From assembly GCA_963575745.1 (NCBI GenBank), contig CAUYUJ010000215.1, forward strand, positions 62,001 to 116,768: a stretch of 54,768 bases of DNA. Reading direction: 5' to 3'. The DNA is from Prorocentrum cordatum. Lineage: Eukaryota. The stretch's first letter is position 1; each line of letters starts with the position of its first letter. The position numbers were made by a program, and so were the translations under genes. The notes under the pieces were generated by a model. It had not been told where the DNA came from, searched no databases, and saw nothing but the letters and a program-made list of their open reading frames with translations. Shown in pieces: positions 1 through 11,757 of the stretch.

Positions 1-837
1 GGTATCCAGCTGGCGTCCATCACCGCTGCTTCGACTTCCAGCGGCGCCGCGCCTGATGGCGTTCCACCTCGGAATCCCAGTCGGCCCGTTTCCCCAAACC
101 GCGCGTGTATTTAGGAGTTCTTATTCAGTTTCTCGGGAACTGGGCCTGGCTGGCGGTCTGGCGGCTCCGCTCTCACCGTCGCCGCCCCGTCGCCGCCTCG
201 TCGCGGCTCGTCATTTGGGCGTGGCCAGCGGTCTGGCGGGTCTGCGCTCGCCGTCGCCGCCCCGCCGCCGCCTGCCCTTATTGTTCTTATTGTTCTGCGC
301 GGTCGCGGTTGGTCGCGCACGTCGCGGGTCATTTGGGGCGCGATGAATCGGAGGGAAACGGAACTCGGCGCCGCCAGGTGGCTGGAGGGAGCAGGTGGCG
401 CGGGGGCCTTTGTTTCCCCCCTCCTCTCAACCTCCCGGTGCTGCCGCCCACGTTGTTCCCGTGTCAGCGCGCGCTGTTTCGGATTGCGAACGGCGGCGAT
501 TTCAGCGCCGCGGATCGGCCGCGCTGGCCGCGACAAAAAACACGTTCTGGAGCCGCGATTGGCCAAGGCGGGGCAGCCTTTGACGTGCAGCTGCGAGCCC
601 CGGGAAAAACGCGCACCCACGCATTGGCCCCCTCGTGTAAATAACACCTGGGTCGCATCCGGCCGGTTCAACCCGTTGAGTCTTCAACGGGACGGGGAAG
701 GTTCAGCGAGGTTTCGAGGTGCAACGTCTGATCATTGTTGGCATCGCCACTGGCGTTTGCCCGTCGTGACCCCGCCACAAAGCCAGCCGATGGCCGCTCA
801 ATCTGGGCCGCCCCGCCCAACTGGTTAGAGTCAATAG

Positions 838-1112
838 GAAGAGGCGAGGAGGAGGAGGAGGAGGAGGAGGAGGAGGAAAGGAGGAGGAGGAGGAAAGGAG
901 GAGGAGGAGGGAGGAGGAGGAGGAGGAAAGGAGGAGGAGGAGGAGGAGGAGGGGGAGGAGGAAGAGGACGAGGAGGAGGACGAGGAGGACGAGGGGGACG
1001 AGGAGGACGAGGAGGACGAGGAGGACGAGGAGGACGAGGAGGACGAGGAGGACGAGGAGAAGGAGGAGGATGAGGAGGACGAGGAGGAGGAGGAGGAGCA
1101 GGAGGAGGAGGA
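838..1112. repeat. (GAG/GAC)n trinucleotide low-complexity tract
   Basis: Direct reading: long runs of GAGGAG and GAGGAGGAC. Confidence 0.95.
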
Positions 1113-1926
1113 ATATCAATAATAATAAGACTAATAAGAATAATACTAACAATAGAAAGAAGACGAATAAGACTACTAATAATAATAACACTAATATTAC
1201 GAGGAGTAATAATGATAATCGTAAGAAGAATACTAATATGCAAACACATCATACTACTGCTAGTAATAAGAAACACAAGAATACTACGAATCATAATAAC
1301 AATAATACTACGAATGCTACTAATAACAAGAGTAAGAATACGAATGCGAATCATAATAACACTAAGCATACTAATACTACGAATACTAAGAATAGTAAGA
1401 CTAATACTGATAATATTAATAATATGAAGAATAATAACAAGACGACTAATAATATACTGCGGAATAATACAACTAAGAATGCACATATTATCCATGATAA
1501 TAATAAGAGTGATAATATTCATAATGCTAAGAAGACGGCCAATAATACTAATAACATTACGATTAATATTTACATTCAGAAGGATAATAATAGTAATACT
1601 AAGAATGATCCTACGAAGAATAATATTACTACTATTACTGATACTATTAAGAATACTAATGATATCAGTAATACTACTACTACGGTTATCATTTCTGATA
1701 TTACTAATATTACTAATACTATTAAAAATACTAATAATGCTGATACTACAAGCACTACTAATACTGCTAGTACTACTATTACTAATATTATTACTAATAA
1801 TAATAAGAAGAATACGAAGGCTAAGAATAATAAGAATAATAATACGAAAAAGAAGAATACGAATAAGAAAACTAAACATAATAATAATAACAACAATACT
1901 AACAATACTAAGAAAAATAACAATAC

Positions 1927-1966
<40 letters not shown>

Positions 1967-1970
1967 AATA
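1113..1970. repeat. Degenerate AAT/ACT/AAG trinucleotide tract ending in (GAT)n
   Basis: AT-rich triplet-phased sequence; pure (GAT)n at about 1928-1965; flanked on both sides by GAG tracts. Confidence 0.9.
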
Positions 1971-1974
1971 AAGA

Positions 1975-2196
1975 TAGGAGGGGGAGGACGAGGAGGAGGA
2001 CGAGGAGGAGGAGGATGAGGATGACGAGGAGGAGGAAGGGGGTGACGGCGACGAGGGCAAAGAGGGCAAGGAGGAGGAGGAGGAGGAGGAGGGGCAGGAG
2101 TCAAGGATGTGGAGGAGGAGGAAGAGGAGGAGGAAAAGGAGGAGGAAGGGCGAGGGGGACAGTCCAGGAAGAGAAGGTGAAGGAGGAGGAGGACGA
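1975..2196. repeat. (GAG)n purine-rich tract, 3' flank of the LINE
   Basis: Direct reading. Confidence 0.9.
2181..2196. repeat. Candidate target-site duplication, left copy (AGGAGGAGGAGGACGA)
   Basis: Identical 16-mer at 2181-2196 and 9141-9156, directly abutting both element ends; low complexity weakens the call. Confidence 0.6.
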
Positions 2197-2390
2197 TGAT
2201 GCACGAGCCTCAAGCGGCGCGTGTGACCCGCCGCTCGCGCTCGCCGCGCGCCCCACGCGCGACGGGCTCGCGCTCTCAGCGAGCGCCCGCACGCCACGGC
2301 CCCTCGGGCTCGGCGTGCCGCCAGCGCGACGGCCTCACGGGCCACTCAGGCCGTCGGCCCGTCGCGCCAGGAGGAAGGGGAAGCTGGCCA

Positions 2391-5300
2391 TCACCCCTCA
2401 CTCCTGAGCGGGCTGATGGCCACCGCGACCTTGCCCGAGATCGCTGGGGCGAGCCGCCTCTCCAGGCGCGCCACGGCCAGCAGCCCCTTGGCCGACGCGT
2501 GGCCGCACGGCGGCGCGAAGCTGGAGGCCCTGGCCGCCCCCACGGCTCCGCAGGCGGCGCACGCGACCAGCGGCATGTCGCGGCGCAGCTCGACGTCACG
2601 CTCGGGCTCGATGCGCGCGAGCACGTGCGTGCTGAGCCCCCTGGCGGCCAGCTCGGCGTTGTGCTGGAGCGCCGCTGGCACGATGGTGCCTGGGCACTCG
2701 CCTGCGCGCTCCACCCAGCGGCAGCGGCTGCACCACCGCTTGCCAGGCTCCCCGCGCCAGGCACAGGAGAGCCTGGCGGCCGGCTGCGCCAGCAGCGCCT
2801 TCGGCGCGGGGCGCTGTGGCTTCGCCACGCGGTGGGTGGTGTCCCTGCCGTCCAGCGCGCCGCCCACCGCCGACACCCAGAGCGCGACGCCCTCGACCAG
2901 CTTGTCGGCCATGACGAGCCTCCTGCGATCCTGATGGCGGATCCGTCCTGCCGCCGCCGCCGACTTGGCGGCCTTGTCCGCCATGCCGTTGCCCAGCCAG
3001 TCGCGGTACGAGATCTTCCCGTGGGCGAGCATCGCCCTCTGCGTCTGGTGGGCGGGGACCTTCCTGACCTTCAGCCCGCCGTCGCCCAGGCCGCCGAAGT
3101 CCTCCAGCTTGGCCCAAACCTCCCTCCAGAGGTGGGCCCACGCCGCGCCGTGCGCGGTGGTGCGCCTCGGGCCCAGCTCCAGCAGGCCGCGGTGCACGAA
3201 GCCGCTGTCCACGACGACGGTGACGGGCGGCACCGCGAGCCTGAGGACCATCAGGAGCGCCATGAGCTCGCCGCCGTTGATGTCGACGTGGGGCTCGCAC
3301 AGCATCCCCGACGCCCCGCACAGGAAGGCGTCGGCGTCGGCCTCGAGCGCGATGACGGCCCAGGCGACGCTCGCGTACTGCTCGAAGTCGCCCTCGTACT
3401 GCGAGCCGTCCAGGTAGAGCTCGCCAGAGGGGAAGAAGCCGTCGCTCTCGCCCAGCCAGCAGACGTGCGGCGACGGGGCTGGCTTGACGATGCCAGTCGG
3501 CGCCGCCCACAGCACGCGCTCCAGCAGGCAGCGCACTTCGGGCATGTCCGACCTCGCCGCCAGCTCGCGCATCTTGTCGGGCAGCTTCAGCTCTGGCGGC
3601 CAACCTGCGCAGCTGCCACAGTGCCTGTGGAGCAGGGTGCCGACCTCGCCGCACAGCAAGCACGAGTCGTCAGAGGCCATGCCCTTCTCGTACTTGCGGC
3701 TCTGGCACCACTGGCCGTCGGTGACAACGGACGCGAGATACCCTCGCTCCTTCAGCGTGAGCTTGATGGATGACTGCTTGCCTTCCATGGGATTCGGCCC
3801 ATGGTCCATCTGCACCGTTGCTCGGCCATGGCGTGGCGACGCTGGCCGCTGCCCAGCGGGTCCTGACCTCTCGAGCACGGCAGAAATAGGCGACGTAGAC
3901 CCCTGGCCAGCGGGTCCTGACCTCTCGAGCTCAGCATGTGGCGACGCGAACGCTGGCCAGGGGGTTCTGACTCCGAGCTCAGCAAAGCTTGGCAACGACG
4001 ACCGCTGGACAGCGGGTTCTGACGCCAGCTCTGGGCAGACCGCCACCGCCATCGGAGGGACTGAGGCTGCGTCGGCGACACCAGCAGAGGCCACTGCGGC
4101 GCGCCTGGCAGGCGCCTCGTCGAACTGCTCCTCCGCGCTGATCATGGATCGCGCGTGCCGCTCCGCCTGCTCGTCCCACTCGTCAGGGTCCTGCTCTGCC
4201 AGCCGCTTCATGTTGGCGTGGTAGCGGGCTCTGATGCGCTTCCTGGCCGACCAAGCCGACTCGCAGAGGTCCTGGACCATCTTCAGCCTGGCCACGCCGA
4301 GGTTGTCGATGTCGAGGGAGCGCGCCGTCTCGGTGACTAGCGGCAGCCACGTGCCGTGCGCCAGCAGGTCGGCCACGTAGGAGACGCAGAGCCTCAGCCA
4401 GTGGGCCTTGTTACCATCCTCGTCGAGCGTGGCAAGGTCCTGGATCCAGAAGGTGGTGTAGGCCCTCAGCCGCTTCTCCAGCACCATCCGCGCGTACACA
4501 GCCGCCCTCCTCACAGGATCTTGATCCTTGGCCTCCATGACAGCCAGCTGCCGACCGAAGACGCCCTTGCGGCTGACGGCACCCGAGGAGGTCATCGTGA
4601 TCAAGGGCTCGATGACCCCCCCGCTCGCGAGGTGCTCCAGGCCAGGCCCTTTGCTAACCTCACGCCATTGCCACGCTTGAACTGCTCGCAGGAGAATGCG
4701 CTTGACCGACCACGGCCCCAGCTCGAAAACATGAATGTCGTAGCCCTCGTGCGTGCGCCACAAGGTAGGGCTCAGCACCTGCCAGCCAACTCTCTCGAGC
4801 GTGAGCCTCACCGCGCTGAAGGGGCCCTTGGCCTGGCTCCAGCTCGCAGCCTGGCAGCAAGTGAGGCCGTAGGCGATGATATGCTGCGGGATCCAGCACT
4901 CCCACGCCGCGCGCAGCATCATCAGCACTGGGAGCAGCGTGGCCCTGATCATCGGGTCCAGCATGGGCGTCAGCATAAGCGTCAGCGTGCGCGAGCGACC
5001 GTCCACGCTGGGGGCCACTGCCTTGAACGTCGCCGTGCGCAGCGTGTCCAGCTCCATGGTGGCGCAGCCCGTGACCGCGACGCCGTAGGTCACGCTGGGC
5101 TCGATCCCAGCACGGGCCACCTTGCGCACGGCCTTCTTGCGCCCAGCCCCAGTCTTCAGGATGGCCACGCGGCGCTGGCGTAGCCCTGCTTGAACCAGCT
5201 TCTCCTGCCGCACCTTGCGCACGATACGCTTGCCGCAGGCGAAGTCGACGCCCAGGTTGCGCTCGCCCTTGACGGAGAGCACGCCGAGGGGACGGCGCAG

Positions 5301-8300
5301 CCGAGCGGCCAGGGCGTGCCGGCCTGCTGGGAGGTTGGAGAGCGCCCTCGACTTCTTGACCGCCACGTTGAGGTCGACGTCCAGCAGCAGCATCTTGAGC
5401 TCGAACGCTGCCTCTGCCACCTCCTTAGTCACGCGCACGAGCCCGCCAACTCGGTGCAGCATGAGGTCGTCCACGACGACGGCCAGAGAAACTGTCGGGT
5501 GCTGTGCGACCAGGCGATCCAGCGGCCCGATCAGAATAAGCTTCAGCAGCGCCGTCGCGAAGCCATCGCCTGGGAGGATCGACTGCCTGGCCTCGATCAC
5601 GCTCGAGGCCGCGCTGCCCATGCAGAGGACCCGAGGCGCGCAGTAGAGCTCCAGCGTCAGCTTGAGCTGCCAGAGGGGAAACCCCGTGGCGATGGCGGCG
5701 TCCAGCAGCCAGTGGTGGCGCACCTGCTCGAACGCCTTGAGCAGGTCGAGCAGCACCGCCACGGCCACCCACGACTCGGCGTCCCCGCAGTCGGCACCGC
5801 GCTGCGTGGCCCACTCGCCGATCGCGGCCTGGTGCCACACCGCACGCTCGCAGCTGCGGCCAGCAGCTGCCCACCAGTAGGGGCGGTCGTTGTCTTGCTC
5901 CCACTTGCGCGCGACGCCTCGGCGCAGCCGCGCCTGCACCCTCGCCAGCACCATGATGACGGCGATGGGCCTGACGCCGCCGAGCCGCTTCTGGATGAAG
6001 CCGATCTTGGTTGTCATGAGCGGCCAGGCTGCTTCGCGCTCGACGGCCACCAGGATGTCGATCAGCACCTCCAGCGCTTCGTCGCACAGCTCGTCCAGCT
6101 GCCGCGGCCGAACGGAGCAGAAGGACATGCCCGTGCTGCCCTTGAACGAGCGCAGCACCTTGCGGAGCTCGGGGACCGTGGGCCTGGGCGGCCTCTCGCC
6201 GAGGTCGGCTGGCCACTGCAGCCGCGCTTGCTCGCAGGTAGTCCTCCACCAGCGGCTCCACTCGACCTCCAGCGCCGTGACCTGCTGCCCCAGGTCCATG
6301 GGCTCGAACAGCTGCTGGTGGTCGTCGGCGTCCTGGTCGTCCTCGGCGTCGCCGTGCGGGCTGGAGTCGAACCCGACGGGCAGGCGGGACACCGCATGTA
6401 GACCACCTCCACCGCCTTCGGCCTGCTTCTCGACCCAGTGCTGGAACTGGACGGTGCGCTGGGCCATGTCCTTCTCAGCCATGTCGAGCGCCACGGCTTG
6501 CGCCCCAGCGTGCAACTGCAGCAGCTCAGCGGGGGTCAGCGCCGCCAAGCGCAAGTTGCTAAGCAGCGACCACCATGCTACAGCTTGGGGCAACACCTGA
6601 GGGCAGGACAGAACCTCGCCAGCATCAGGTGCCGCCTTCACTGTGGCTGGGGCTCTGTCTAGCAGCCTACGCGCACCTCGAAGAGCGTCGAGACGCGCGT
6701 TGGGCTGCTCCACGTCGGCGATGTCCCGCAGCAGGCTGGCAGCACGGTGCATCCATGTCGCCTCAGCCGAGACCCGCGGCCAGCGCGCGCCACTCACGGG
6801 CAGCCGCCGAAGCCAACGTGGCTCCACGGGGCGAGCTCGCCCCTTGTGCTTGACCCTGTCCTCCTCGACCTGGTAGATGTCGATCCACTCGTCCTCGGCT
6901 GCGTCGAGGAACCTCTGCCATGCGGCGGTGAGGTTACCCTTGACGTCGGTGCTACCCTTGACCTGATCCCGCACACACTCCTCCAAGTGGCACGATCTTC
7001 CCTCGCTCGCGGGCCCCGCAACGGGCGGCGGTGAGGTCACACGGGAAACGTCCAGGCACTCCGACTCCTGCGCGCCTGCCAGCACGCTCTGCAGCTCGTG
7101 GCCGATCTCGGCCCAGCGGTCGCCGTGGGCGACGCGAGCACATCCAGCAGGCCGCTGGACAGGGAAGGGCTTGGGCACTGGCACGACCCGAACCCACGGC
7201 CGTTGGCGACACGCCTCCAGCTCCAGGATGACTGGCTTGTGCGGGTAGACGGGCGACCCGCTGACCACGCTGATGCTGGTCACCTTGAGCCCACGCGAGA
7301 CGATGAACATATCGATCGTCCGCTTCGACTGCGCGCAGGTGGGCTCCAGCGTGTCGACGACGACCGCATCGAAGAGCCGCAGCACGCCTGACTTGGCCAG
7401 CTCCTGCTTGGTACAGTTGAAGTCGCCCCCGACCACGTATGGGCGACCGTACTCGCGCAGCCTGCAGGCCAGGTCGCGCAGCATCTGGGCGTTGAACGCG
7501 TTGACGCCGACGCCTGACTGCAGGTAGATGTTGGCCATCACGATGCCGCCTCGCAGCAGCCCCGAGTGATGGAGCACTTGCACGCGCCCTTCTTGAAGCA
7601 CAGAAGGCCGCGACCCCAGCATGGTGGCAAGGCCATGCTCGCTGCGCACACAAGTGAGCAGCCCCCCAGTTGCCAGCCCTCCAGCCAGCGATGGCACCGC
7701 GGCAGCACCACATGCTCGAAGCCCTCGACGGCGAAGCTCCCCTTCAGCGTCCGCCGTGCGCGCTTCTCCCAGCCGCGTCTCTTGGAACAAAATTGCGTCG
7801 CAGCTCGTCAGCTCCTCGACCAGGCACTTGTCGATGTTCGAATACGCATTCATATTCAACGTGACGAAGCGCCAGGAGCTGCTGCGGCTAAAGCTTCCGC
7901 CGCTTGGCCTCCATCGCGGCGACGTGCTGTTGCTGCAGGTGGGCCTGTAACTCCTCGAGGAACTTCCGCTTCTCCGCGTCCGTGCCGATGAAGTCCTCCG
8001 CCGCGGCCTTGAAGGTGTCGCCCGTCGCGAAACCCAGGGGGTCGCCCTCCAGGTCCATGTCCTCGGACTCGCCCACGGGCTTCTCGGCGGCATCGTCGCC
8101 GGCCCCAGCGGCGGCGGCAGCGCGGCCTGCAGGTGCGGCTCCTCCTCCACATCCTCCAGCAGCGACTGGTTCAGGTGGCGCGGCAAGCGCGGACACACCT
8201 GCCAGCAGCGCTTGGAGAGGTCCCAGCAAGGACTCTGGAAGCTGGACGCCCTGGCTCTCCGAAGAGGTTCCCACGAGCGTCCTGAGCTTCTCCACGTTGC

Positions 8301-9119
8301 CGAGGATGCCGCTGAGATCTGCTCCTCCAGCAGCTGGCTTGGGCTCGGCGCCGTTGGCGAGCGCGGCCTTCGCCTTGGAGACGGCCTCGTCCAGCTCGAG
8401 CTGCAGCTGCGTGACCTTCTCCTTCTGTTGGAACGCTGCCTGCAGCGCCTCCGTAACCATCTTCTGCTTCTTGTTGTAGTCCGCCTTGGCCTGCTGGAGC
8501 CGCTTGCAGGCCTCGTCGGCTGCGACCTGCGCAGACTTGACGAACTTGACGTCGGACAGCACGCCCAGCTGCTGCTGCAGCAAGAAGCGCGACTGGCGCA
8601 GGCTGTGCTTGTCGCTGCCGGCCAGCGTGACGGACAGCAGCTCGAAGTCGTCGTCACTGAGGGCCATGAAGCGGTCGCGGGCCTCGGGCGAGAGCTTGGG
8701 CGGTTGCGCCCCCGAGCCCCCGCCACCTCCACGCTTCGGGTTGGCCATCGTATGCCAAGGGCGGGAGTCTGCACCTCCGCCCGCCCACGCCCCACGCGCT
8801 GGAGGAGGGCCAGAACGAGGAGCAGGTACACGATTGGTCGGCCTGCAGCCCGTGCACCCCGCTTGCCGACACTTCGCGCGCCAGCCCAGGTTCTTGTAGT
8901 GGCAGCGGTCGCAACGCCAACTCGTCCCCTGAACTGCGTCACGCGCTGCACCAGCGCCAGCGCCGCCGCCGCCACGAGGCTGAGGAGCCATGCCGCTGCG
9001 GCTCGGCACTGGACTGCCGAGCTCCTCACCTGGGGCGGACCAGGCCGAAAAGCTGAAAGACTTGCTGCGGCAGCAGCTTCCGATTTGCCTGGAGGCTGAA
9101 CAGCCTCCCAGGAAGTCAT
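2391..9119 (-). CDS. LINE ORF2 polyprotein: APE endonuclease (~7225-7870), reverse transcriptase (~5240-6150), CCHC zinc finger (~3610-3665), RNase H (~2960-3425), C-terminal Cys/His cluster. Recognisable domains begin near 7870; true start uncertain
   Basis: APE: FVTLNMN, FQETR, NIYL, GGDFN, TIDMF, PHKPV. RT: KRLGGVRPIAV, LLDLLKAFE, SILPGDGFAT, VVDD, NLGVDF. CLLCGEVGTLLHRHC. RNase H: YLDGS, GELMA, VVDSGFV, KVPAHQ, GNGMADKAAK. Confidence 0.93.
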   Translation of the reverse strand: MTSWEAVQPPGKSEAAAAASLSAFRPGPPQVRSSAVQCRAAAAWLLSLVAAAALALVQRVTQFRGRVGVATAATTRTWAGARSVGKRGARAAGRPIVYLLLVLALLQRVGRGRAEVQTPALGIRWPTRSVEVAGARGRNRPSSRPRPATASWPSVTTTSSCCPSRWPAATSTACASRASCCSSSWACCPTSSSSSLRRSQPTRPASGSSRPRRTTTRSRRWLRRRCRQRSNRRRRSRSCSSSWTRPSPRRRPRSPTAPSPSQLLEEQISAASSATWRSSGRSWEPLRRARASSFQSPCWDLSKRCWQVCPRLPRHLNQSLLEDVEEEPHLQAALPPPLGPATMPPRSPWASPRTWTWRATPWVSRRATPSRPRRRTSSARTRRSGSSSRSYRPTCSNSTSPRWRPSGGSFSRSSSWRFVTLNMNAYSNIDKCLVEELTSCDAILFQETRLGEARTADAEGELRRRGLRACGAAAVPSLAGGLATGGLLTCVRSEHGLATMLGSRPSVLQEGRVQVLHHSGLLRGGIVMANIYLQSGVGVNAFNAQMLRDLACRLREYGRPYVVGGDFNCTKQELAKSGVLRLFDAVVVDTLEPTCAQSKRTIDMFIVSRGLKVTSISVVSGSPVYPHKPVILELEACRQRPWVRVVPVPKPFPVQRPAGCARVAHGDRWAEIGHELQSVLAGAQESECLDVSRVTSPPPVAGPASEGRSCHLEECVRDQVKGSTDVKGNLTAAWQRFLDAAEDEWIDIYQVEEDRVKHKGRARPVEPRWLRRLPVSGARWPRVSAEATWMHRAASLLRDIADVEQPNARLDALRGARRLLDRAPATVKAAPDAGEVLSCPQVLPQAVAWWSLLSNLRLAALTPAELLQLHAGAQAVALDMAEKDMAQRTVQFQHWVEKQAEGGGGGLHAVSRLPVGFDSSPHGDAEDDQDADDHQQLFEPMDLGQQVTALEVEWSRWWRTTCEQARLQWPADLGERPPRPTVPELRKVLRSFKGSTGMSFCSVRPRQLDELCDEALEVLIDILVAVEREAAWPLMTTKIGFIQKRLGGVRPIAVIMVLARVQARLRRGVARKWEQDNDRPYWWAAAGRSCERAVWHQAAIGEWATQRGADCGDAESWVAVAVLLDLLKAFEQVRHHWLLDAAIATGFPLWQLKLTLELYCAPRVLCMGSAASSVIEARQSILPGDGFATALLKLILIGPLDRLVAQHPTVSLAVVVDDLMLHRVGGLVRVTKEVAEAAFELKMLLLDVDLNVAVKKSRALSNLPAGRHALAARLRRPLGVLSVKGERNLGVDFACGKRIVRKVRQEKLVQAGLRQRRVAILKTGAGRKKAVRKVARAGIEPSVTYGVAVTGCATMELDTLRTATFKAVAPSVDGRSRTLTLMLTPMLDPMIRATLLPVLMMLRAAWECWIPQHIIAYGLTCCQAASWSQAKGPFSAVRLTLERVGWQVLSPTLWRTHEGYDIHVFELGPWSVKRILLRAVQAWQWREVSKGPGLEHLASGGVIEPLITMTSSGAVSRKGVFGRQLAVMEAKDQDPVRRAAVYARMVLEKRLRAYTTFWIQDLATLDEDGNKAHWLRLCVSYVADLLAHGTWLPLVTETARSLDIDNLGVARLKMVQDLCESAWSARKRIRARYHANMKRLAEQDPDEWDEQAERHARSMISAEEQFDEAPARRAAVASAGVADAASVPPMAVAVCPELASEPAVQRSSLPSFAELGVRTPWPAFASPHAELERSGPAGQGSTSPISAVLERSGPAGQRPASPRHGRATVQMDHGPNPMEGKQSSIKLTLKERGYLASVVTDGQWCQSRKYEKGMASDDSCLLCGEVGTLLHRHCGSCAGWPPELKLPDKMRELAARSDMPEVRCLLERVLWAAPTGIVKPAPSPHVCWLGESDGFFPSGELYLDGSQYEGDFEQYASVAWAVIALEADADAFLCGASGMLCEPHVDINGGELMALLMVLRLAVPPVTVVVDSGFVHRGLLELGPRRTTAHGAAWAHLWREVWAKLEDFGGLGDGGLKVRKVPAHQTQRAMLAHGKISYRDWLGNGMADKAAKSAAAAGRIRHQDRRRLVMADKLVEGVALWVSAVGGALDGRDTTHRVAKPQRPAPKALLAQPAARLSCAWRGEPGKRWCSRCRWVERAGECPGTIVPAALQHNAELAARGLSTHVLARIEPERDVELRRDMPLVACAACGAVGAARASSFAPPCGHASAKGLLAVARLERRLAPAISGKVAVAISPLRSEG
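3845..4030. repeat. About 54-bp tandem repeat (3-4 degenerate copies) within ORF2
   Basis: CCAGCGGGTCCTGACCTCTCGAGC occurs twice 54 bp apart (LERSGPAGQ twice in the protein), with further degenerate copies. Confidence 0.75.
7888..8991 (-). CDS. LINE ORF1 (367 aa from ATG 8991): RanBP2-type zinc finger, coiled coil, C-terminal basic NLS-like motif
   Basis: WRCDRCHYKNLGWRAKCRQAGC fits W-x-C-x2-C-x3-N-x6-C-x(2-4)-C; heptad-like A/Q/K/E-rich helix; ends AKRRKL; GC3-rich codons; position upstream of the APE domain. Confidence 0.85.
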   Translation of the reverse strand: MAPQPRGGGGAGAGAARDAVQGTSWRCDRCHYKNLGWRAKCRQAGCTGCRPTNRVPAPRSGPPPARGAWAGGGADSRPWHTMANPKRGGGGGSGAQPPKLSPEARDRFMALSDDDFELLSVTLAGSDKHSLRQSRFLLQQQLGVLSDVKFVKSAQVAADEACKRLQQAKADYNKKQKMVTEALQAAFQQKEKVTQLQLELDEAVSKAKAALANGAEPKPAAGGADLSGILGNVEKLRTLVGTSSESQGVQLPESLLGPLQALLAGVSALAAPPEPVAAGGCGGGAAPAGRAAAAAGAGDDAAEKPVGESEDMDLEGDPLGFATGDTFKAAAEDFIGTDAEKRKFLEELQAHLQQQHVAAMEAKRRKL

Positions 9120-9141
9120 CTTGAGCCAAAATGGCTACGGA
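9120..9141 (-). other. Perfect 22-nt dinoflagellate spliced leader (DinoSL) TCCGTAGCCATTTTGGCTCAAG
   Basis: The plus strand reads CTTGAGCCAAAATGGCTACGGA; its reverse complement matches DCCGTAGCCATTTTGGCTCAAG 22/22 and is followed directly by ATG. Confidence 0.97.
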
Positions 9142-9355
9142 GGAGGAGGAGGACGAGGAGGAGGCGGAGGAGGAGGAGGAGGAGGAGGAGGAGGAGGAGC
9201 AGGAGAAGTTGGAGGAGGATGAGGAGGAGGGGAGGGAGTGTCGAGAAGGAGGAGGAGGAGGAGGAGGAGGAGGAGGAGGAGGAGGAGGAGGAGGAGGAGG
9301 AGGAGGAGGAGGAGGAGGAGGAGGAGCAAGAGGATGAGGGAGGAGGAGAGGAGGA
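9141..9355. repeat. (GAG)n tract, 5' flank of the LINE; includes the right TSD copy at 9141-9156
   Basis: Direct reading. Confidence 0.9.
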
Positions 9356-10115
9356 CCTCCCCATCCTCCCTTCTCCCCCGTCAGTTGGTCGTGGTGGTGG
9401 AGAACTGGCCCCTCACTCCAACTCCCTCAACGCAGCGGTGCCCAGCAGCAGGCCAACAGGGGTGCCGCTCAGGAGGGAGGGGTGGGCAGCAACTGGTGGG
9501 AGCCAGTGGGCCTGGGTGGGCTGCGCCAGTGGCGCACGATGCGAGGGGAGGAGGAGCCCCCGTGCAAGGGGCACCGGCAAGCGGCATGCGTGAGAAAGGA
9601 CGGCACGTGGCAGTCTTGACTCAGCGGAACTTTCCGTCGCCGAGCGTCGGAGAGAGAGGCTCGGCGGGGAAGAGTGAGGCGCTGGACCAGCGATCCAGAG
9701 ACGGCGCGCGTAGTATCTGGGGCAAACCCCAGGAAGTGCAGCAGGGCTTGCCACCAGACAGACAGGCAGGTACATGTTCCTGGCGTCGCAGCCCAGGAGG
9801 GGGGGGATGGTGCAGGCCAACGTCGAGACGCTCTGACAATCGTACTGTAGGCGATTGAGAGGGGCGCTGCCTGCATTAAACTCGTGGGGGTGTAGGAGGA
9901 GAACGTATACGAGCATGGGTGGAAAGCTGGGGTGATCAACGAGCTTACCAAAGCATTCACGCAGTTCAGCGCAGGCCTCCTCAGCAGAGAACCCGGAAGG
10001 TGGCCGCATCCGAGGGGACCCCAGGAAAGAATGCAGGTGCGCCTCGGCGAGCGCCTCCGCCTGTGGCCCTGCGCCTTGCGGCCTGAGCGGGGAGGTGCTG
10101 GAGCGGAACCGTGGC

Positions 10116-10345
10116 ACACACACACAAACTCACACCCAACCACACAACCACACAACCACACAACCACAAAACCACACAACCACACAACCGCACAACCACA
10201 CAACCACAAAACCACACAACCACACAACACAAAACACAAAACACACAACACACAACACACACAAACCGCAAAACAACGTGCACGCGCGCGCACGCAAACG
10301 CACACACACACACCCACACACGCGCGCACACACTCACACACACAC
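10116..10345. repeat. CACAAC/CA microsatellite
   Basis: Direct reading. Confidence 0.9.
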
Positions 10346-11553
10346 ATCCAAAGAGCACGCAACACGAGCCACGCAACAACTCGAGCAGAAACCGCGGGGC
10401 GGCCACGGGACAACCCGCGAGACAACAGCGGAACACAACCACGGGACAGCAACGGCACGACCCACGAGACCATCCACCTCCTCCTCCTCCTCCTCCTCCT
10501 CCTCCTCCTCCTCCTCCTCCTCCTCGGGTCGCCTACGGCCCCGGGGCTAAACTGTGCACCCCCCCCCCCCCGCGCGAGGGCAAGGGCAAGGGCAAGGGCG
10601 GCCCGCCCAGCGCGCCGAAGGCGGGCGCGCGCGCGCGCAAAGAGCCGCGCGCCAGCGGGACAACAACTGGACAACCACAGGACAACCACATAACGCCTCA
10701 CGAGGGAATCACGCAACAATCCACGCAACAGCTATGGCACAACCCACGGGACTCGGACTCGGACTCGGCCTGCGTCTTGCCCCGCGGAGCTGCTGCAGGG
10801 TGGGGCCGAAGCACCCGGGAAATATAGGCGTGTGAAACTGAGGTAACAACAGGCTGCTACAGAACGAGGGCGGCGGCGGCGAGCATCAACTGGTCAGAGT
10901 GTCATCTCCAGTGCAGATGGCTGGAGCAGATGAATTTTTGGCAACGACAACGGAACAACCCAAAAGACAACGGGGCAACCCACTGGATAAGCACGGGACA
11001 ACCCAGCGGGCCCCAGCGAGACGCACAGAGGGAGACATGTTGTACGACTTGGCATTCGCTGCGGCCGAACCATCATCGTCCTCGCGCAGCTTTTCATCGC
11101 ACACACGCGCGGCACGAATCGACACGACTATTCTAGTTGGTGTCCCTTCGCTGTCGCGTTCCAACCTCCGACGAAGCCAAAATAAACGTGCGTCCCTCGG
11201 AATTGGGTGTAGGCATACCTATCTCCATGAGCAGCCTTCACGTGACTTCCCAGTGGGAACATGACCTACGAAGAGCCCACATGCTTGCGTTGACACTCTG
11301 GCACAACGGCAGCATACATGTTGGAGGTTCGTTTTCACGACTGCACTGACACTGGTGCTCGACAGGATATGCGTAGTCTGCAACATGTCAGCTGTGGCCA
11401 ACCCAGCGCTGGGTGGTGAGCTCACAGGAATGACTCCCTGGGCGGCCGCTGTCCAAAATATTCGGTGCAGAATCTTCTCCATCAGCGGCACCCCGCTCCC
11501 CCCCCTTCCCCACTCACCACCGTCATCCTGTCACTCCCCATTGCAAGGACAGA

Positions 11554-11757
11554 GGCCTCCCAGATGGGGTCGGAGTAGATGGGGTCGGAGAATCGCGCCG
11601 TATCGACAATGCATTGGCGATGCATCGGCGACGTCGGCGATGCATCGGCGACGCAGGCATGGAGAAACGCTGGCTCCGCATCGCGCCGCATCGCCGATGC
11701 ATCGGCGATGCGGAACGATCCTCCGACCCCATCTACTCCGACCCCATCTGGGAGGCC
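11554..11757. mobile_element. MITE-like element with perfect 37-bp terminal inverted repeats
   Basis: GGCCTCCCAGATGGGGTCGGAGTAGATGGGGTCGGAG (11554-11590) is the reverse complement of 11721-11757; internal CGATGCATCG palindromes; 13-bp direct repeat nearby on each side. Confidence 0.8.

Follow-up and report, generated by a model that had tools for sequence, protein, structure and literature searches.

A LINE of Prorocentrum cordatum headed by the dinoflagellate spliced leader, whose ORF2 may be reached from the first AUG through a stop-free frame overlapping the whole of ORF1

Bicistronic long interspersed nuclear elements (LINEs) of the APE type, such as human L1 and silkworm SART1, carry a first open reading frame (ORF1) upstream of an ORF2 coding for endonuclease and reverse transcriptase on one RNA, in which ORF2 has no ordinary access for scanning ribosomes. 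The ORF2 of L1 is translated by termination-reinitiation. Overlapping genes read by leaky scanning are found in viruses, as in p69/p206 of turnip yellow mosaic virus and P/C of Sendai virus, and programmed +1 frameshift sites are found in yeast Ty1/Ty3, bacterial RF2 and antizyme. In SART1, the start of ORF2 is at the ORF1 stop or past it, by means of a UAAUG stop-start (available part of PMC3894237); the same text describes reinitiation, internal ribosome entry site (IRES) and 2A routes for LINE proteins, while leaky scanning is named there for viruses only. Here a LINE with the same order of reading frames is described, found in a stretch of 54,768 nt of Prorocentrum cordatum DNA (the window, to which all coordinates refer). 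In contrast to SART1, its ORF2 frame is open from the first AUG over all of ORF1, and, in contrast to both SART1 and L1, no usable AUG is present near the ORF1 stop.

Two further descriptions concern dinoflagellates. SymbioLINE-Dnmt of Symbiodinium (PMC5890265, available part), compared here by its description only, is similar in being a dinoflagellate LINE with no poly-A tail and an ORF1 upstream of an ORF2 with Exo_endo_phos, RVT_1 and RNase_H; it differs in that its ORF1 is a DNA methyltransferase. In the main text of that article, as far as available, neither "spliced leader" nor "frameshift" is mentioned. A DNA copy of the 22-nt dinoflagellate spliced leader (DinoSL) marks a reverse-transcribed mature mRNA, according to the accessible sections of PMC6050394, where the retroelement behind retroposition is called unknown and long terminal repeat elements are favoured. 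In contrast to DinoSL-tagged retrogenes, here the tagged unit is the retrotransposon itself. No description of a LINE of this kind was found in a search covering open-access papers and preprints.

The element is on the minus strand and is present in one copy in the window. The complete 22-nt spliced leader, as DNA, forms its 5' end (T+CCGTAGCCATTTTGGCTCAAG, 9141-9120(-); an exact match at 9120-9140 plus the T at 9141), and this is the only exact spliced-leader match in the whole window; the 21-mer CCGTAGCCATTTTGGCTCAAG is identical to the string used for picking spliced-leader reads in PMC6616646 (available part). An ATG at 9119-9117(-), in the context CTCAAGATGA, directly adjoins the leader. 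This ATG, indicated below as AUG1, is the first possible start, because the leader, when read back in the same frame, contains an in-frame TAG; it opens the ORF2 frame, which extends for 2242 codons to a TGA stop (2391-9119(-)). ORF1, 367 codons followed by a TAG stop, occupies 7888-8991(-) and starts at ATG 8991, indicated as AUG2. The 128 nt from AUG1 to AUG2 (inter-AUG leader, 8992-9119(-)) are open in the ORF2 frame and contain no other ATG, and, the offset between the starts being 128 nt, the ORF2 frame is the +1 frame of ORF1. The ORF2 frame contains no stop over its initial 410 codons (7889-9119(-)), made up of the inter-AUG leader and the +1 frame of ORF1. This layout, as set out in the original prediction, holds with its coordinates on the minus strand; so does the proposal that the leader is the whole 5' untranslated region (UTR), observed in both copies available at the DNA level (2 out of 2). 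Four public sequencing runs cover 9113-9150 at depths from 148 to 11,657, while most of the remaining stretch is covered at about 5 to 55; the excess over the typical depth of each run, roughly 22 to 1,100-fold, fits a sequence common to very many loci. Dispersed copies share the 5' end: contigs 90-99% alike are present in all four runs, and a diverged copy, described below, has the same layout.

The open +1 frame over ORF1 is unlikely to be due to chance. No stop is present in its 367 codons, while 40 are found in the +1 frame of the remaining 1832 codons of ORF2, where the longest open run is 226 codons. The 30 NTG and 2 NTA codons of ORF1 are the potential sources of such stops: none of them precedes a base completing one, and 0 of the 30 NTG codons precede an A. 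As suggested in the original prediction, synonymous codons of ORF1 were shuffled: 20,000 shuffles gave a mean of 3.72 +1 stops, with P(0) = 0.0056, while shuffling of the codon order gave P(0) = 0.0006. In nine control windows of 367 codons, taken from ORF2, the synonymous null behaved somewhat too generously: between 2 and 17 stops were seen, fewer than expected in seven of the nine, although none of the nine was free of them. A stricter null was therefore built, in which codon choice depends on the amino acid and on the first base of the next codon, as derived from the non-overlapping ORF2 of the window and of the diverged copy. For the ORF1 of the window, 3.66 stops are still expected, and P(0) = 0.0105. 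The avoidance resides in codon choice: when a Leu, Val or Met codon precedes a codon starting with A, NTG is used in 0 of 8 cases, as compared to 30 of 49 elsewhere in ORF1 (Fisher 0.0013), while in non-overlapping ORF2 NTG before A is found in 37 of 82 cases.

A second copy, L001, is a metagenome contig of 2185 nt and one of three ORF1 relatives (53-64% identity) found in a protein collection; its DNA was retrieved. CCT-rich DNA, the same 22-nt spliced leader and an ATG at base 55, equivalent to AUG1, follow each other in this order, and the frame starting at base 55 is open for 710 codons, into the endonuclease, up to the contig end. The ORF1 of L001 (168-1280, 370 codons) has an offset which is again 2 mod 3. 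The ORF1 proteins of the two copies are 64.7% identical, and 68 of 140 shared four-fold sites differ (49%); differences by codon position in the ORF1 frame (.239/.208/.406) follow the pattern of a coding gene. The inter-AUG leaders, 128 nt in the window and 113 nt in L001, are barely alignable, and their lengths differ by 15 nt, i.e. five codons; when shuffled, such leaders stay open about 34% of the time. In L001 too, ORF1 has 0 +1 stops in 370 codons, as opposed to 11 in 301 codons of its endonuclease part, with P(0) = 0.010 by synonymous shuffles and 0.025 by the context-aware null. NTG before A is used in 0 of 5 Leu/Val/Met cases, against 27 of 51 elsewhere (Fisher 0.052) and against 9 of 17 cases of NTG before A in the non-overlapping ORF2 of the contig. 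At seven aligned sites, Leu or Val is found in both copies while the next codon starts with A in one copy only: four feature NTG in the copy without the A and NTC or NTT in the copy with it, three feature NTG in neither, and NTG before A is found in 0 of 7. By a rough estimate of our own, the probability of L001 alone replicating the feature by chance is about 0.003-0.006, as the product of the overlap (0.025-0.05), the frame (1/3) and the open leader (0.33). L001, the one diverged copy with DNA, features neither +1 stops over ORF1 nor the loss of the leader-adjacent ATG, the two findings which had been set beforehand as telling against the original prediction. Because L001 keeps the spliced leader, the adjoining ATG, the open frame and an inter-AUG leader differing by a multiple of three, the open frame looks selected, the ORF2 frame apparently being kept free of stops over ORF1 through the choice of Leu and Val codons.

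Close variants of the window are in agreement with this picture. They were drawn from contigs of the four runs, and, among the 40 listed of 52, no stop is created in either frame and no indels are present; within the overlap, the same 40 comprise 19 synonymous and 17 non-synonymous changes in the ORF1 frame. Runs X1 and X2 provide no cover over 9019-9065, where the inter-AUG leader is either variable or filtered out. A protein search with residues 1-425 of ORF2 found nothing among long proteins and, among short ones, only the near-identical 87-aa P0047, a transcriptome-derived protein which is 97% identical to ORF2 aa 1-87 and has the same starting Met. P0047 hints at transcription of the 5' end of the element. 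It is filed in EukProt under the transcriptome of the green alga Pyramimonas, and is probably a carry-over from a dinoflagellate.

The conserved part of ORF2 begins 17 codons past the ORF1 stop, with an APE-type endonuclease domain at about aa 415-640 (7200-7877(-)). It is recognized by Pfam as PF03372 (Exo_endo_phos; E 1.7e-6, 28.4 bits against a cut-off of 24.5, aa 428-623). The AlphaFold model of aa 400-660 has a mean pLDDT of 74 and a pTM of 0.76, and the top PDB matches found for it by Foldseek are LINE-1 endonuclease structures, human 2v0r_A being the best (E 3.3e-11), while a PDB sequence search with the endonuclease-reverse transcriptase region gave no match. The first strand of the modelled fold is formed by aa 415-423 (WRFVTLNM). 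As the original prediction had pointed out, the first Met after the ORF1 stop, M423, is inside the first APE motif (FVTLN-M-N): since the strand ends with this very residue, a start at M423 would, according to the model, remove it. No in-frame AUG is present between the ORF1 stop and M423. Upstream, the window has two in-frame Mets (aa 1 and 343) and L001 has four (aa 1, 107, 249 and 315), aa 1 being the only one common to both.

AUG1 and AUG2 are, in the window, the first two AUGs of the RNA, and open different frames. AUG1 is 22 nt from the cap; in the window and L001, its position -3 is A and its position +4 is A or T. In both copies, AUG2 is preceded by a purine (G or A) at -3 and followed by G at +4. 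The reading favoured here, to which a probability of roughly 0.55 is assigned on the basis of sequence comparison, is that ribosomes starting at the leader-adjacent AUG make the ORF2 protein (ORF2p), while those passing it make the ORF1 protein (ORF1p). The element would be a young, intact APE-type LINE of a dinoflagellate, copied from an mRNA carrying the 22-nt spliced leader of its host. Ribosomes starting at AUG1 would translate an Arg/Ser-rich stretch of 410 residues, whose sequence would be unimportant, and continue into ORF2p, the extension being disposable; those passing AUG1 would start at AUG2, whose context has a purine at -3 and also G at +4, and would yield ORF1p. The ORF1p:ORF2p ratio would then be set by the proportion of ribosomes passing AUG1, and the overlap would be a read-through bridge and not a second conserved protein. 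Since the frame must be open while its sequence is free, ribosomes travelling through it would be the simplest account.

A number of observations weigh against this reading. AUG1, with its A at -3, is not in an obviously weak context. The inter-AUG leader of L001 contains one additional ATG (offset 28, third frame), whose short ORF ends before the ORF1 AUG. Only two diverged copies were compared at the DNA level, and the first of them was chosen because of the feature. In run X5, a contig of depth 2.9 lacks the first 75 nt past the spliced leader, the ATG included, and has 35 other letters there, among which no ATG is found, its shorter side fitting by 24 letters only, under the reliability mark of 30. 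P0008, a protein 63% identical in the endonuclease, has its starting Met 24 residues ahead of the LNFN motif, so that some family members may use a local ORF2 start. Runs X1, X2, X3 and X5 each have a contig matching 8880-8961 and continuing into a different 5' part, with ATG GCA GGA in the ORF1 frame: to judge by their sequence, these contigs form a subfamily in which the leader is a different one and the N-terminus of ORF1 is shorter. Three gene models of P. cordatum (P0005, P0015, P0070) fuse ORF1 and the endonuclease in one protein. Finally, four-fold sites change no more slowly in ORF1 than in the endonuclease part (.486 and.396, respectively), and the product of the overlap in the ORF2 frame is 50.9% identical between the copies, versus 64.7% for ORF1, with the second codon position as the most variable one (.374); in the same frame, all 40 listed variants amount to 9 synonymous and 31 non-synonymous changes.

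The fused gene models were considered as a possible trace of a single-ORF ancestor, and down-weighted: blocks of the alignment are missing from them and predicted introns may be present, and they were counted neither for nor against the favoured reading.

The last figures also define what is selected in the overlap. Purifying selection on amino acids is that of ORF1 only, and the overlap does not display two selected proteins; the sole visible constraint on the second frame is to stay open and joined to the leader-adjacent ATG. The extension has 410 residues, with 17% Arg, 17% Ser and an isoelectric point (pI) of 12 in the window; in both copies R is 17-18%, S 17%, P 10-12% and pI 12.0, and no Pfam family matches it. 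The original prediction had spoken of dual coding. This holds in that the frame is open over all of ORF1, while the lack of amino-acid conservation in the ORF2 frame indicates that dual coding does not apply if two conserved proteins are meant.

Among the alternatives, the one which survives best, although still unlikely, sees the open frame as a by-product: the +1 frame would be open because ORF1 is Ala/Gly-rich and GC-rich (GC by codon position.734/.533/.780), and ORF2p would be made by termination-reinitiation, or from a non-AUG start near the ORF1 stop. Long open alternative frames are indeed present elsewhere in the element (357 codons in +2, 460 codons in antisense), the +2 frame of ORF1 is stop-poor as well, with 3 stops against 11.0 expected from shuffles, and the overestimation of stops by the synonymous null in seven of the nine control windows points the same way, as does the overlap being free of amino-acid constraint. 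Reinitiation has, moreover, a precedent in the UAAUG of SART1, listed in the available part of PMC3894237, where the start of ORF2 is said to be still open for most LINEs. Yet P(0) stays at 0.0105 and 0.025 when codon-pair context is taken from the same elements, and the feature recurs in L001 at the low probability estimated above, despite the change of nearly half of the four-fold sites, with codon switches tracking the next base. The ATG at the leader, the frame and the open inter-AUG leader are all kept, while the sequence of the inter-AUG leader is not. A start downstream of ORF1 would, furthermore, meet no in-frame AUG before M423, from which the fold would be truncated.

A programmed +1 frameshift at the ORF1 stop, generating an ORF1-ORF2 fusion of the Gag-Pol kind, would make the upstream open frame irrelevant. 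This appears improbable, more so than the by-product. As in the known +1 frameshift systems, a stop codon is found at the junction and the frame beyond it is +1, and the short distance from this stop to the conserved part of ORF2 would suit a shift. The ORF1 of the window ends with CTT TAG C, resembling the bacterial RF2 site CUU UGA C; TAG is followed by C in both copies, both feature a hairpin downstream of the stop, and the three gene models read ORF1 and endonuclease as one, the P0005 junction being like that of L001 minus one T. However, the codon before the stop is CTT in the window and GGG in L001, so that no shift site is conserved, and the fused models are open to the reservations given above. 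The hairpin is about 28 nt past the stop, while stimulators are usually within a few nt, and the 124-nt stretch containing it folds, in comparison with shuffles, with z -0.05 in L001 and z -1.99, slightly better, in the window. In contrast to such systems, the open frame extends upstream, by over 1.1 kb, from the point at which a shift would require it: the 367 stop-free codons, the conserved AUG1 and the frame-keeping leader would all be left unexplained.

That the 410-residue extension is itself a selected domain, for instance an Arg/Ser-rich module for RNA binding or nuclear import, is very improbable: the frame is kept open and the composition is the same in both copies, but this composition results from ORF1 codons being read one base on, the identity is lower than that of ORF1 with the second position varying most, the ratio of synonymous to non-synonymous variants among those listed is about random by a rough, uncomputed estimate, and neither a Pfam match nor a homologue beyond the near-identical fragment P0047 was found.

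An internal acceptor for the spliced leader, generating a separate ORF2 mRNA, was also considered and rejected: no in-frame AUG is present from aa 343 to M423, and the leader, which contains no ATG and ends in G, cannot supply one.

The proposed expression of the element resembles that of viral genes read by leaky scanning. There too, two AUGs near the 5' end open different frames with a long overlap, and one of the products is basic, overprinted and poorly conserved. In the present element, by contrast, the long polymerase frame begins at the first AUG and the short protein at the second, and the overlap takes in the whole of ORF1; the element is, moreover, a cellular retrotransposon with a trans-spliced leader as 5' UTR.

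Further downstream in ORF2, the matches are weaker. The reverse-transcriptase region (about aa 1042-1224, 5448-5996(-)) matches RVT_1 with 16.9 bits (E 0.0053), below the cut-off of 29.6, and the RNase H region (aa 1943-2055, 2955-3293(-)) matches RNase_H with 21.9 bits (E 2.2e-4), below the cut-off of 25.8. ORF2 is matched by 2756 library proteins, all unnamed; most of the long ones align over query residues of about 940-1197.

The hairpin mentioned above is formed by a palindrome, GAATATGAATGCGTATTC, at the start of the endonuclease (7840-7857(-)), which contains M423. It includes two of the three AAT codons of ORF2 (18 are AAC), as well as a TAT (2 TAT versus 19 TAC in ORF2), in a surrounding ORF2 frame where GC at third positions is 86%. 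The form GAATATGAATGC(G/A)TATTC is kept in the window and in L001 (about 1309-1326). The conservation of these rare A/T-ending codons, as sequence, suggests a constraint at the nucleotide level.

The ORF1 product has a Cys-rich N-terminal motif and a middle part predicted to be a long helix. The motif, W-x-C...C-x3-N-x6-C-x4-C-x2-C, is conserved between aa 25-50 of the window (8865-8930(-)) and aa 21-50 of L001; it resembles a RanBP2-type zinc finger, with no match in Pfam. For ORF1 as a whole, no Pfam family is found at E <= 0.01 and only noise at E <= 1; among PDB sequences, the sole match was one of low complexity, to ribosomal protein P1 (E 0.026). No ORF1 relatives were found in the viral-contig and genome-contig collections. 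The pattern composed of spliced leader and ATG has 0 matches in the genome-contig collection, and two in the viral-contig collection, at unrelated loci, neither of which has a tblastn match to ORF1 or ORF2. In L003, a contig of a giant-virus metagenome-assembled genome in IMG/VR, at 3001-3024 and downstream, a complete dinoflagellate leader directly precedes the ATG with which an ORF of 400 or more codons begins, in very AT-rich DNA: it may be either a virus with a retrocopied host-type mRNA or a mis-binned dinoflagellate contig.

Both flanks of the element consist of (CCT)n. Upstream, a microsatellite at 9142-9355(-), (GGA)n on the plus strand, is reported by Tandem Repeats Finder at 9139-9355 with period 3 and 72 copies; downstream, a 3' UTR of about 190 nt (2198-2390(-)) is followed by an imperfect (CCT)n repeat (1976-2197(-)). 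Because both flanks are of this kind, target-site duplication and tail are not readable. CCT-rich DNA also precedes the spliced leader in L001 (1-32), and the flanking repeats in the two copies point to microsatellite targeting. The upstream repeat may represent the target site, or else a polypyrimidine tract preceding the terminal AG of the spliced leader; a repeat in this position would put a pyrimidine tract before the terminal AG of the relic leader. Just beyond the downstream repeat (1100-1975(-)), the DNA is AT-rich and of low complexity over about 850 nt, with a periodicity of 3 nt (ATC, TAT/TAG/TAA-like units), in sharp contrast to the 61% GC of the window.

Taken as a whole, the family may be tentatively described as LINEs with no 5' UTR of their own, for which the host spliced leader would serve as the whole UTR. 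ORF2p and ORF1p would be selected by start-codon choice, over a stop-free bridge of 1.2 kb, and the (CCT)n target would supply, at each new site, the pyrimidine tract for re-splicing at the AG of the leader.

If the favoured reading is true, an ORF2 reached from the first AUG across an overprinted ORF1 would be a third solution to the problem of LINE translation, beside reinitiation and 2A peptides, and would be a clear natural example of a frame selected for being open, with no selection on the protein. Translation control is thought to dominate gene regulation in dinoflagellates, and the element would offer a handle on start-codon choice in their spliced-leader-capped mRNAs. It is, finally, a plausible source of the enzymes behind many leader-tagged retrogenes, a source called unknown in the available text of PMC6050394.

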